Source of the DNA: an uncultured Acidobacteriota bacterium
Lineage (GTDB): Bacteria > Acidobacteriota > Terriglobia > UBA7540
Direction of reading: 5' to 3'
Assembly: GCA_963804995.1 (NCBI GenBank)
Contig: CAWDSK010000001.1
Coordinates: 320,001-384,000, forward strand
Length of the DNA stretch: 64,000 bases
This document shows positions 15,481 through 52,392 of this stretch, piece after piece. Numbering within the stretch: the first letter of the stretch is position 1; each line of letters opens with the position of its first letter. Below the pieces are notes generated by a model, which searched no databases, had not been told where the DNA came from, and saw only the letters and a program-made list of their open reading frames with translations. Both the position numbers and the translations under genes were made by a program.

Positions 15481-15518
15481 GAAGAACCGCGGACCTCAAC
15501 GGCGGAGGTCCGCGCTAC
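15481..15518 (-). repeat. GTAG-type REP-like hairpin (GAAGAACCGCGGACCT..AGGTCCGCGCTAC)
   Basis: Related copies at about 17345-17410, 43352-43392 and 45998-46037. Confidence 0.7.
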
Positions 15519-15532
15519 GCTGGGCATTCCGC

Positions 15533-16113
15533 ATTTCGGACAATTCCACGCACCTTTTTTACGATTTGGGCTACCGGTAGCCCATTTGCATATATCTCTC
15601 TTGACAACAGCTCGCCCCATGCTAGCCTATTAAGTGGAGAATTGTTTCGTGCTGACACTACCCGCCACCGTGGAATGCCCAACGCCGCCGCGAAAATCGC
15701 ACCCCCTCGTCCCATGGCGCGGCTTACTTGAAAATGCGCTGCCGGGATTCCCGCTTCCTGCCTTCGCGGGAAGGACAAGCGTGAGATCCGTGCCCATTTC
15801 CCCGGCGCAGCGGGCCAAAAAACGGTTGGATATGACACGGATTGCGGTATCCTTCTGACGATGTTGATGATAATAAAGGAAGTTAGCGGAAATACTGATG
15901 ATCTACAGAAAAAGTCAACGCATTGAAACTAAGCCACTTGCTTGATTGACTGGCTCGGGTGCGCCACCGAATAATTTCAATCAGGATAGTCTAACGATGT
16001 GTATGAAAACAAAGGGGAGCAGCAGTGACAAATTGGCAAGTCTAACGATGTTGATGAAAACACACAAGTTAACCTACTTTTCTAACGATGTTTATGAAAA
16101 GAAAGGGAGTTAT
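15533..16113 (+). other. Palindrome-promoter-motif-array element, copy 1
   Basis: TGGGCTACCGGTAGCCCA 15567-15584; TTGACA 15601; TGnTAGCCT -10 at 15623; motifs with GATGT at 15860, 15996, 16047 and 16087; colinear with 52392-51559(-). Confidence 0.85.
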
Positions 16114-16375
16114 CAGGAATGGCGAGGTGTTTTGGAGAGAATTCTGGACTCGGGCTTGGGGGGGCGAGAAGCGGCGCTAGTTGCCCGGTGCGGCCACCAA
16201 AAAGGCGTGGCGACTTCGCCGGATGGAGAATGAAAATGCCGTACGGAAAATGCCAAACTGAGCCAGTGCCCAATGAGAAACCCGGTTGACAGCCGCGGAG
16301 GAACAGTTGAAAGTAGAAGTTCAGTACCCACCACGGCTTGATTTCAACTTTTGATCTGGACGGGAGTCCTGGAAC

Positions 16376-43205: not shown

Positions 43206-43980
43206 TTTTCAGACAATTTGCTGCGCGCATTGCATTTTTGGGCTACCGGTAGCCCAAAAGCGTACATTGCCTATTGACATAGGCCAGTGGTTTACGAGCA
43301 TAATAGAAGTAGGGAAGCGCAGCGCCCGGATGCGTCGCGGCGGCATTTCCTACCGAAGAACCGCGGACCCCAGAAGCGGGGTGTCCACGCAACACGGTCT
43401 CGGGAGCTTTCCATGACCTCCATCCTGCCGCGCACATCAAGTCTGGCCAAAATAGCCGCAAATCGGGCCCAGGGTCGGCAGTCAGAGGGCGCGATGACGC
43501 CGGCGGGCAAGGCCCCCATGACCAATTCGGAAATTACGGGCTATCGAGGCAAGCCGCGAGCGGCGGAGGGTGATCGGGCAGTGTGGAATTCCATTGACTA
43601 TCTGGGCCCCGAATCCCGGTTTTGTTTCACTGGATTTTCATGCCTCATGCCCTGGGACAGGCTGTCAATTTGTCGAGTGGAATTAGGTGGGGAGCACGTC
43701 CCTACAAAAAATATCAAAATGAAGAGTGCTCCCAATAACATAATGAAAACAAAGGTCGAAAAACGACACAATTTGGCATGGCCAATGACTATATGAAAAC
43801 AAACGGCTTATCGTATATGCCAATAACTTACTGAAAATGCACGAGATAGCATCACTTAAGGGCAGCGGAATCAAAGAAGAACACCTCAAACCCACCCTAG
43901 GCCAATAACTTAAAGAAAATAAACAAGTTATACGCTTATGTTCAAGGCAATGCCAATAAGTTTATGAAAAGATTGGAGAT
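43206..43980 (+). other. Palindrome-promoter-motif-array element, copy 2
   Basis: Perfect 24 bp TTTTGGGCTACCGGTAGCCCAAAA 43236-43259; TTGACA 43274; five CCAAT...GAAAA motifs at 43732, 43782, 43820, 43902 and 43953. Confidence 0.8.
43413..43796 (+). pseudogene. Short or relic ORF inside element 2 with an IAANR..S.G..T..GK motif
   Basis: GGGAG RBS; SLAKIAANRAQGRQSEGAMTPAGKA; ORF runs into the motif array. Confidence 0.4.
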
Positions 43981-44174
43981 GATGAGCAGGGACAAACCAT
44001 CCCCTTGTGGACCCGTGAGTCTTGAGCCGCTGAAGCGTATTGGAACCCGAGGAGAGCCCCAAATAATCGACCCTAATTACCTCCGAGCCACAAAACTTCA
44101 GGCCACTATCAATTCACCCCAATTGGAGTAGAATCCAGTTCCTTCTTGATCCCCAGCAGCCCCAGGAGGCCGTA

Positions 44175-45946
44175 ATGATAATCCGGAAGACGCTAACGTA
44201 CCTTATGTTGGGAATGGGACTGTTTGTTGCCCTACCTGCCTGGGCGCAACAGAAGCCATTGACCCAGGATCAAGTAAGAGGTTTGGTACGCAACCAGCTT
44301 GGCGACGAGACGGGTGCGCGCGCCATTCGCGAACGCGGCATCGACTTCGTGCCCAGCGACGATTTCCTGGAAGCCCTCAAAAACGCCGGGGCCACAGAAC
44401 CTTTTATCCAAGCCTTGAAAAAGGTGAAGCAGCCCGGCACCGCTTCCGCACCCGCAGCCCCCCGGGTGCCCTCCCCACCCGCAGCGCCTGCGGTTTCCGC
44501 CAACGCGCCACTCGATATGTTCCAGGTCCTCGATCTTCTAATCAGTGTGGTGCCGACGACTCGTATCGCCTCGCTCATCGGACAGCGCGGAATTGCGTTC
44601 TCGGCGCAGGGCGAAGTTTTGAAAGATTTTCAAATGTTGGGGGCTCAAAAAGGGATCCTTCGTGCCCTGCGCGAGGCGAAGGCATACCCCGCCGATCCGG
44701 ACGCCCTGAAAAAGCATGCTCAGCTTGTGGAGAACGACTACGCCGCCCGGCTGCAAAAAGATCCTAACAATCACGTGGTGCGCTTCGCCTTGGCGGAAGC
44801 GCTCGACACCCAAGGAAAGGACGATGAGGTCGTCGACCTGTTCCGAGCTGCTGTGAGGCTGAAGCCTGACGATCCGTGGGCGCATTACTGGCTTTCAATC
44901 GCGCTGGGGAGAAGGAGGGATTTGGAGGGAGCCCTCGCGGAGCTGCGCGAAGTCATCCGCCTGGACCCCAAGGACCCCCTCCCCCATCGGGACCTGGCAA
45001 GCGGGCTCAAGGAAAAGGGTGATGTGGACGGAGCGATCGCAGAGTATCGCGAGGCCCTGCGCTTGAACCCCAATGATGACATGGCGCACTTCGACATCGG
45101 GAACGCGCTCAGCAAGAAGGGAGACCTGGAGGGTGCAATCCCGGAATACCGGGAGGGCCTACGCCTGAACCCGACTCTTGTAGCAGCCCGCCTCGGCATG
45201 GGCAACGCACTCGAACAAAAGGGCGACCAGGATGGCGCCATCGCGGAATACCGCGAGGCCCTGCGCTTGAACCCAAAGCTCGCTGATGCGCAGGTCAGCC
45301 TTGGCCGTGCGCTCTTTATGAAGGAAGACTGGGATGGGGCAATCCGGGAAGAACGCGCAGGGTTGCTCCTAAATCCCCATAGTGACGTTGCGCATTCCAT
45401 TCTCGGTGCTGCACTCGAAAAGAAGAAGGACCGGGATGGCGCAATTGCGGAGTTTCGGGAGGCGCTACGCCTAAACCCCAATAGTGACTATGCCCACGGT
45501 AGTCTAGGCGACGCACTTGGAGAAAAGGGCGACCTGGGGATGGCGCGATCGTGGAGTTTCGCGAACTGGTGCGTTTGAGGCCCCATGACGCCCAAGCGCA
45601 TGGCAGCCTCGGCGTCGCGCTCATACAAAAGGCCAATTGGGATGGTGCAATCGCGGAGTTTCGCGAAGTGGTGCGCTTGACGCCCAATGATGCTCAAGCG
45701 CATTGCGTCCTCGGTATCTCGCTCGGGCAGAAGGGCGAAGTGAATGGCGCGGTCGCGGAGTATCGGGAGGCGCTGCGTCTGGACCCTAACCTCCCGGAAG
45801 CACACTACAACCTTGGCGTCGCGCTGGAGAGGAAGGGCGACCGGCAGGGAGCACTTGAGGAGTACAGCGTGGCATGCAAGCTTGACCCCCAGGAAGCGAA
45901 CTATCAGCAGAATTACCAGCGGCTGTCGAAACAGCTGAATAAATGA
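44175..45946 (+). CDS. Exported TPR-repeat protein; frameshift near 45533-45540
   Basis: Signal peptide; many 34-aa GD.DGAIAEYREALRLNP repeats that continue in a shifted frame to 45946; AGGAGG RBS. Confidence 0.88.
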
Positions 45947-46261
45947 TGAGCATGAACCACGGGCAGGATCGTTGGAGCGGCGGCTTTTCATAGCAAGCAT
46001 AGAACGGACCTGTTCTTCAAGGTCCGCGACTCTTCGCATCCTAATGCCCGCTACTGCGGGTTAACGATTGACAGCTTGCCTTTGGATTCGAGAGCACGAA
46101 TTTTCAGAAGAACCCTTAAGGAAGGGGTTAGCACGTGGAACCTGAAATTCCCTATTCCCGAAGCGACCTGAACGGCGGGGCGTGGGCTGAGGTTACGCTT
46201 AGCGACAGGTACTCACTCCACTCCAAGCGAATGGCACTAGGCAGAAGGCGAGGAGGCATCG

Positions 46262-48471: not shown

Positions 48472-48540
48472 GACGAGCGGCCGCCGGATAACTTTGCTGG
48501 AGACCTGGGCCATCGCGGTGGAGCCTCGCGGGCTTAAGTG

Positions 48541-48610
48541 ACCCCTCACCCGTCCCGCTCCGGCTGATGAAAACGCCGGCAGCGGTCCACCCTCTCCCCT
48601 CGGAGAGGGC
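48541..48610 (+). repeat. REP-like family A copy, flanked by an 11 bp direct repeat
   Basis: Matches 972-1041; GGCTTAAGTGA at 48531-48541 and 48650-48660. Confidence 0.85.
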
Positions 48611-51480: not shown

Positions 51481-51558
51481 TGTTTCTCCTTGGCCTGACT
51501 TCGGCACCTTGGCCCACTTCACCACCCAGCGTCATACTTTTCCTGAAGGCTAAGCATT

Positions 51559-52392
51559 ATAACTCCATTTCTTTTCATAAACATCGCGAGATAGCGTTTT
51601 TAACTTATGTGTTTTCATCAACATGGCGAGAAGGCGGAAAACTGACATTTTGCCACCATTTGTTTTCAATAACATCGCCAGGCTATCCTTCATTATTTCC
51701 CCCGCGTTTTTTCGCAACCCCGGCATCAGAATGAGCTGACTATCTTTGTTTCAGCGATATAGACTTTTGCAGGATTCTTGCTATTCACAGCTAACCCATT
51801 TTGTTTGCTACACATAATGGAAAGCCGCGGGCAATTTTGTAGCGCTGAACTTTAGTTCAGCATGTGCCGACCTCCCGACCAAGTCGGGACAGGTTCCGGT
51901 CGGCGCTACATCGGCTTGTGCCGACCGTTCGCGGTGCTCAGGTCGGGCTCCGAAGGTCGGCACCACTTCGCGCAGATTTATGGCGTAATTCGTGTTTTTC
52001 AGCCCACAATCCTGATCGATTGTCGTCAATTCTAGCAAAATTCCGGAATTTTCTGCAAAAAGGCTCGAATAATAGCCTGACATATTGTCACTTCTCTTGT
52101 GTTTTCATACACATCCCCGGAGGTTCCTTCATTTTTAACATCTCTACGGGTCAGCGCCCCGTTTCGGGTTCTGATCAGCGTGCCGGTGAGCCGCCACAAT
52201 TGGCGCAAGCTGGAATCCTCCCTCTTCTGCATGAGCGGCGCGTTGCGGGTGCTCCTAGTGTGCTCGACTTCACCACGACACAATTCTCCATTAAATAGCC
52301 TAGCAGGGACGCGGCCATTGTCAAGAAAGATATATGTGAATGGGCTACCGGTAGCCCAAATCGTAAAGGAGGGGTGTCCAATTGTCCGAAAT
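51559..52392 (-). other. Palindrome-promoter-motif-array element, copy 3
   Basis: Palindrome 52341-52358; TTGACA 52324-52319; TAGGCT 52302-52297; motifs at 52115, 51676, 51625 and 51585 plus degenerate ones; interrupted by a REP cluster. Confidence 0.85.
51838..51966. repeat. GTAG-type REP cluster inside element 3
   Basis: TGTAGCGCTGAACTTTAGTTCAGC..GCCGACC..GGTCGGCGCTACA..GGTCGGCAC hairpins. Confidence 0.75.

Follow-up and report, generated by a model that had tools for sequence, protein, structure and literature searches.

PICIs and SaPIs, as described in PMC6092414, encode their own TerS, which redirects the TerL of a helper, and their induction is tied to that helper. The element reported here is predicted from its sequence to resemble them in these respects, but it lacks an integrase, an excisionase, a replication module, a master repressor and an att site, it consists of one gene in tens of dispersed copies, and its putative helper is a vertically inherited gene cluster and not a temperate phage. 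PLEs (Gpi, GpsA/B and pac mimicry; PMC11417361) likewise act as parasites on TerL and mimic their helper. A PLE is, however, a satellite with several genes that replicates and depends on a lytic phage, whereas the likeness seen here consists of a promoter palindrome and a protein motif. TerS proteins bind DNA through their N-terminal part and TerL through a C-terminal segment, with a coiled coil between the two, and in GTAs it is the C-terminal segment that is conserved (PMC6854486). The putative helper cluster resembles RcGTA in being single-copy and family-wide and in carrying head, tail and lysis genes, and the gene ahead of its terL (the pre-terL gene) encodes a conserved C-terminal helix, as does gp1, the TerS of RcGTA. 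It differs from RcGTA, as that source presents it, in its Mu gp28-like TerL and in the longer N-terminus of the pre-terL protein, and the dispersed element has no counterpart there.

Measured against class definitions, the element resembles MITEs and IS in its sharp ends, its lineage-specific insertion and its short gene-less derivatives of ORF-bearing copies, but it has no TIR, no TSD and no transposase family match, and its ends are asymmetric. It has in common with REP/RAYT, IS200/IS605 and IS91 HUH elements a palindrome, no TSD and flanking DNA carried in subfamilies. Unlike them, it has an all-helical ORF that gives no HUH match and, in amplified families, does not conserve a tyrosine, and its palindrome is single, internal and approximately 30 bp from the end. 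The original prediction that no nameable class is matched thus holds under the MITE, IS, HUH and Rfam tests run. A literature search, mostly by titles and abstracts and with most subscription papers outside its scope, found no description of the element or of the head-tail cluster. Passages of PMC3174227 and PMC5900883 mention only repeats and prophages in general, and their supplements could list these loci. Our results point to an unclassified high-copy mobile family, present in several phyla and without a recognisable transposase.

Three window copies and their kin in the genome

The window analysed is a stretch of 64,000 nucleotides from an uncultured Acidobacteriota genome (G000; Terriglobia, 7.55 Mb); relatives carry G-numbers and individual loci L-numbers. 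All three regions hold, in this order, a head GACAATT (15538, 43211 and, on the minus strand, 52380 for copies 1, 2 and 3), the 16-bp core GGGCTACCGGTAGCCC (15568, 43240 and 52342), TTGACA 17–18 bp past the core (15601, 43274 and, on the minus strand, 52319–52324) and tail units. The shared ordered architecture claimed originally was therefore borne out at all three sites.

Copy 1 (15536–16114, plus strand) is an element with an internal deletion, in which no ORF remnant was detected. It opens with the motif TCGGACAATT (15536–15545, plus strand), which is half of a degenerate GGACA-N3-TGTCC site. The palindrome TGGGCTACCGGTAGCCCA (15567–15584), predicted to be the likely operator, is centred approximately 26 bp upstream of the −35 box of a sigma70-like promoter (15601–15628, plus strand; TTGACA, candidate −10 TAGCCT), which is predicted from sequence and spacing. 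The tail array (15855–16114, plus strand) has four strong units, at 15855, 15991, 16042 and 16082. A subfamily-specific 3′ extension (16115–16213, plus strand) is common to the copy at C6:147313, and the two copies are 87% identical across window positions 15512–16213.

Copy 2 (43209–43984, plus strand) has the tail subfamily of the long copy at C4:178350, which carries the 296-aa ORF P0002. Its palindrome (43239–43256) and TTGACA (43274–43279) are followed by an N-terminal ORF remnant of approximately 34 codons (43413–43515, plus strand), whose translation resembles the start of P0002 and which was recognised by eye, being below the HMM threshold. The tail array (43731–43984, plus strand) is made of divergent units. 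Copy 3 (51558–52389, minus strand) is composite, with a head, an ORF remnant and one-unit tail, a second module and a full tail. The left-end motif lies at 52380–52389, the palindrome at 52341–52358 and TTGACA at 52319–52324 (minus strand). Its C-terminal ORF remnant (52088–52253, minus strand; profile positions 304–355) gives a profile match at 52098–52253 (E 7.2e-5) and runs into the single internal tail unit at 52088–52120. Matches to its terminal tail array (51558–51821, minus strand) break off at 51559–51560 in many genomes. The middles had been described as unrelated, but those of copies 2 and 3 retain the N- and C-terminal ORF remnants, respectively. Read from this layout, each of the window copies derives by internal deletion from a longer element with an ORF.

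What was first described as a three-copy element has about 60 copies in the genome. There are 56 exact palindromes (66 at no more than one mismatch), and the reversed pattern gives none; the tail-unit PWM has 248 matches, versus 0 in the reversed genome. Upstream of the 54 tail arrays of at least two units, a palindrome lies within 3.5 kb on the same strand in 40 cases and on the opposite strand in 1, with none in 13. Co-occurrence, order and orientation are thus kept in 40 of 54 arrays, a pairing that is partly circular because the PWM seeds were taken from DNA downstream of palindromes; the reversed-genome control is free of this circularity. In 52 of 58 heads, the palindrome is followed by TTGACA at a distance of 17–18 bp.

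A sharp left end is marked by TCGGACAATT, with information content falling steeply leftward of it (51 heads), and this motif stands 29–30 bp ahead of the palindrome in 49 of those 51. At the right end, the element consensus stops at GGAGTTA. Fully palindromic GGACA-N3-TGTCC forms occur in relatives' loci (L018, L020, L030 and L032), and subfamilies share extensions past both ends. The longest word shared by the two flanks averaged 2.88, versus 3.1 ± 0.16 for shuffled flanks (24 elements, without a clean empty site), and the left TCGGACAATT and right GGAGTTA are unmatched, the longest complementary word averaging 3.7. Both tests agree with the original observation of neither TSD nor TIR. An apparent inversion within the tail was dropped, as the site is a degenerate palindrome.

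The element ORF and its spread

A search of the longest copies for any encoded ORF had been proposed originally, and one was found. Five palindrome-headed copies in G000 carry an ORF of 296–384 aa flanked by head and tail; in a sixth the ORF is interrupted. Within this interval the coding strand of the long copies has one ORF of at least 200 aa. A seventh ORF, ahead of gyrA, has a tail and no palindrome. The element stands just upstream of gyrA in two species (L007 at G000:C2:130794, and L035 in G024). ORF fragments are present in many short G000 copies, with 29 profile matches that include window copies 2 and 3.

The ORF has no name in Pfam, NCBIfam (three long ORFs) or PHROGs, and the named close homologues are Terriglobia hypotheticals. 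Its profile matches 16,100 clusters at E ≤0.001, with distant members in Nitrospira, Phycisphaerae, Armatimonadota, Verrucomicrobiae and Protochlamydia. The consensus of these distant members is ANRxNAQxSTGPxTxEGK..N..HG..WRLRR..E..RYE, and at least 90% of them keep H36, R87, R143 and Y144. Two divergent G000 members (L010 and L011; C5:735257 and C6:1344507) retain the tyrosine that is lost in the main G000 family. The predicted structures are all-helical (pLDDT 82 and 85), with a core of short basic helices and a long helical hairpin. Fold searches with the full protein and with the core gave no significant match, the best (Z 10.6 and 7.3) being generic helical bundles, and PDB sequence searches with the protein gave nothing credible. 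The ESM Atlas returned unnamed clusters only, plus SEC-C-fused clusters at 0.80. In tblastn with one core member, a phage collection gave no real match and plasmids gave six weak ones. The ORFs of the copies in G040 (L099–L127) and G215 (L191–L198) mostly end in Ala-Ala, which we take to resemble a protease tag, and in these copies the stop codon coincides with the element end or lies close to it.

Near-identical ORFs occur at unlinked G000 sites, in two pairs of 97.7% and 99.2% amino acid identity. The junction between the GH78 and FAH genes spans 1098 bp with copy 1 here. It spans 41–528 bp, with the element absent, in all 17 relatives compared (19 loci, less 2 without one anchor gene), the empty sites that the original prediction had looked to for evidence. 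By this comparison, copy 1 is a lineage-specific insertion, and together with the deletion derivatives it upholds the description as a high-copy non-autonomous mobile element. In five of these relatives (L079, L081, L086, L087 and L090) the GH78–FAH gap holds GGCA-N3-TGTC words like the end motif of the element; a target or a remnant is possible. In relatives, the genes that flank copy 3 are no neighbours (in G043 they lie 250 kb apart); no empty site was therefore available there, and the element marks a synteny break. A contig joining 51418 to 52392 without copy 3 was not counted, as its match on one side covers only 23 letters, at 82% likeness. An empty site sought in the genus of G040 had a left flank that was not syntenic. 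The ORF family is found in 23 of 24 congeners (1–38 matches per genome) and in 56 of 60 genomes of the family (1–33 each), and the head–ORF–tail order is kept in the congener loci read.

The head-tail cluster and its two links to the element

A single-copy, Mu-like head-tail-lysis cluster lies at G000:C5:301168–333100 (L171, L179 and L180). Among 32 selected ORFs in its approximately 32 kb are genes for an endolysin, TerL, a portal, a protease and a capsid, together with tail-like genes. TerL is present in seven of the eight cluster regions fetched, the eighth of which stops at a contig edge, and relatives of this TerL carry the name FluMu gp28-like. The capsid is 87–96% identical across six species. 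Its gene occurs in 38 of 47 genomes of the family, once in each bar one weak second match, and in 5 of 253 outside it. No integrase or replication gene is among the 32 selected conserved ORFs. This pattern, seen across one family of Acidobacteria from soil, is that of a domesticated cluster, predicted to be GTA-like and a candidate new GTA. In G000 the TerL gene has an in-frame break and the portal gene a frameshift, which may mean either a dead helper in this genome or errors in the assembly. Three related short ORFs stand ahead of terL in the cluster.

The first link is the palindrome. Four palindromes and two promoters (C5:300717–301110) precede the 127-aa gene at C5:301168, the first gene of the cluster, which has weak HTH matches (E 0.01) and one orthologue in each of 13 of 28 congeners. 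The spacing between palindrome and TTGACA is equal in element heads and cluster promoter. The −35 box is preceded by a perfect TTCCTACCGGTAGGAA at seven of 11 orthologous cluster loci and by a degenerate pair at one, and three loci have none; at cluster loci TTCCTACCGGTAGGAA is usually paired, 42 bp apart. Exact copies number 2–24 genome-wide in the eight palindrome-bearing genomes and 0 in the three without. G000 has the GGGC allele both at the cluster promoter and in the elements, and 0 of the other allele. Counting all 12 genomes, promoter and genome agree in allele or absence in 12 of 12, which are kin and not 12 independent events. At 17 sampled loci with the other allele, the palindrome heads an ORF remnant or a tail in 12, is the cluster promoter in one and is neither in four. 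A promoter site that the element has in common with the head-tail cluster is a better reading of the palindrome than an element end. Its centre is near −61, the position where class I activators bind. The candidate binder is the HTH gene or a small zinc-finger gene found upstream of the cluster in relatives. The latter, which we take to deserve an Ogr-like label, has no library match and was not found in the corresponding G000 region.

The second link is a C-terminal motif. The pre-terL gene ends in a conserved helix, which reads KEIFG in this genus and QEIYG, REVYG or QQIYG in the four other-genus genomes looked at (4/4). When an HMM of seven pre-terL C-termini was run against 111,380 G000 frames, the pre-terL gene itself ranked first and an element ORF second (E 3.8e-6); a second element ORF ranked third (E 0.86) and a third had E 13. 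Between the best element copy and the pre-terL motif, 14 of 15 residues are identical and 12 of 14 codons differ, so that the likeness is held at the protein level. This best match is the gyrA-upstream copy (L007), which has no palindrome. Directly before the variable linker, I207, F208 and G209 are present in 97%, 100% and 95% of 117 element proteins, and EIFG is present in 78 of 108. The G000 subfamilies of P0002 type and C3:27876 are absent from the motif HMM matches. In G215, where the cluster is present, the eight near-identical ORFs read (33 element matches) lack the motif.

No TerS model matches the pre-terL gene, which is a putative TerS gene by its position. In the superfamily, residues 30–168 of member P0288 align weakly and collinearly with positions 92–223 of the TerS model NF040601 (E 3.6e-5). 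On NCBIfam, TerS likeness extends to 2 of 83 members, below the cut-off; four TerS PHROGs are each matched by single superfamily members, and NF040601 itself has 0 matches in 151 genomes of the class. In G000, the element ORFs stand alone, not directly ahead of terL. G040 has no intact TerL of the cluster type; it has three N-terminal halves, two of the three being followed by a separate C-terminal half. Dispersed split-terminase cassettes of this kind, with an ATPase half and a separate nuclease-like half (G040:C1:1204900, 3269200 and 4561500; L228–L231 and L235–L246), occur in 9 of 401 genomes of the phylum, and no matches to the cluster portal or capsid were found nearby. A superfamily ORF lies 8–13 kb from each of the three TerL halves in G040 and directly ahead of a split terL half in G187 (L231). 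Such adjacency was seen at 1 of 17 loci, 10 of which have only 1.5 kb of flank.

A packaging model and competing explanations

We put at about even the prospect that the element is a one-gene packaging parasite of the GTA-like cluster, co-induced with it and recruiting its TerL to the element's own tail. The regulator that switches on the cluster would also switch on the elements. The basic N-terminus of the element protein would bind the element's own tail array, and its copied motif would recruit the cluster TerL; cutting and packaging would then begin at the element, as with the TerS of PICIs. Gene-less copies would be served in trans. Since the element lacks an integrase, it would depend on recombination by the host to insert at new sites, probably via the palindrome and neighbouring repeats. 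If true, this would make the GTA exploitable by minimal selfish elements, with a bearing on GTA upkeep and the randomness of its cargo. The model makes sharp predictions, on a single short motif, a single operator and a single DNA array. Should the packaging model fail, the element family and its two links to the cluster would still need explaining. Instead, the motif could be a helix for oligomerisation or the surface of an inhibitor.

With the helper broken in the G000 assembly, the motif missing in G215 and only N-terminal TerL halves of the cluster type in G040, the link to the cluster is most plausibly a specialisation of this genus within a wider element family. More tentatively, one-gene terminase-hijackers may be widespread: a stand-alone TerS-like protein would mark its own end and borrow TerL in trans. 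In this genus a hitherto unrecognised acidobacterial GTA would lend TerL, the operator and TerS C-terminus having been copied, and elsewhere the lender would be, perhaps, an orphan split-terL cassette. The element would then be a selfish parasite of a GTA, and the superfamily of 16,100 clusters would gain a function.

A new IS-like family, with the all-helical ORF itself as the mobility enzyme and with operator and motif acquired secondarily within a single genus, is unlikely. It draws on G040, a member of another family with 52 dispersed, mostly intact copies and no cluster TerL, where the sequence common to close pairs begins at a 5′ motif and stops, to within about 1 bp, at the stop codon, and on the four residues kept in distant members. 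But other residues stand in place of the only candidate tyrosine both in the main family of G000 and in the copies of G215, which were amplified recently, and its loss in amplified families weakens the case for an intrinsic transposase. Searches of Pfam, NCBIfam, PHROGs and folds gave no DDE, HUH or recombinase match, and the protein-level motif match would be left unexplained.

The median dN/dS of the ORF is 0.32 (45 pairs from 10 ORFs, computed without their variable middle); on this estimate it is under purifying selection. Such selection would also suit a TerL or TerS inhibitor, that is, a decoy blunting lysis and packaging by the cluster or blocking Mu-like phages and retained for that role, with the element spreading by other means. 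The operator and motif evidence applies to it equally, and a copy sits ahead of gyrA in two species. A satellite-encoded TerL inhibitor, Gpi, is described in PMC11417361. We nevertheless consider it distinctly unlikely: most copies have head and tail but no ORF, which better fits cis sites served in trans, and inhibition does not require tens of copies per genome.

The copies have a mosaic structure, with the break at the palindrome. The correlation of left and right similarity is 0.22, versus 0.62–0.68 within the right side, and column linkage across the palindrome has z 2.2–2.4, versus 5.4 and 3.9 within the sides; G007 and G015 have repeated and hybrid palindromes. Many copies adjoin other high-copy repeats and carry subfamily extensions or IS insertions. 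All of this would suit a passive hitch-hiker moved by other enzymes of this repeat-rich genome, such as REP transposases, hairpin-targeting IS or homologous recombination between repeats, yet we hold that reading to be highly unlikely, since the selected ORF, the genus-wide head–ORF–tail order and the motif are unaccounted for and several copies have unique DNA flush with both ends.

The slightest prospect is a host-beneficial regulon or set of chromosome sites (dispersed packaging starts or co-regulated RNAs), which would suit the strong promoter consensus and the operator held in common with a vertically inherited cluster, but has against it lineage-specific sites, copy numbers of 1 to 38, variable middles made of decayed ORF pieces, 0 Rfam matches at gathering score within the window and no strand polarity (24 versus 34 of 58 by local GC-skew strand). 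Nor do the strand count and the lineage-specific sites support the chromosome-organising element considered in the original prediction, or the lack of an Rfam match and the variable middles its ncRNA family. The packaging model stays our preferred reading.

Six G000 copies have an IS inside them (C3:402188, C6:1397410, C6:922628, C9:176128, C2:726554 and C2:700576), and in at least two it is the same IS at the same point. Sequencing runs matching the contig do so in small shares only, and no RNA run is among those listed. Contig depth in peat runs is high at window positions 44736–46136 and 48536–48600, which are further high-copy repeats; one such high-depth region overlaps the 3′ end of the gene at 44175–45578.
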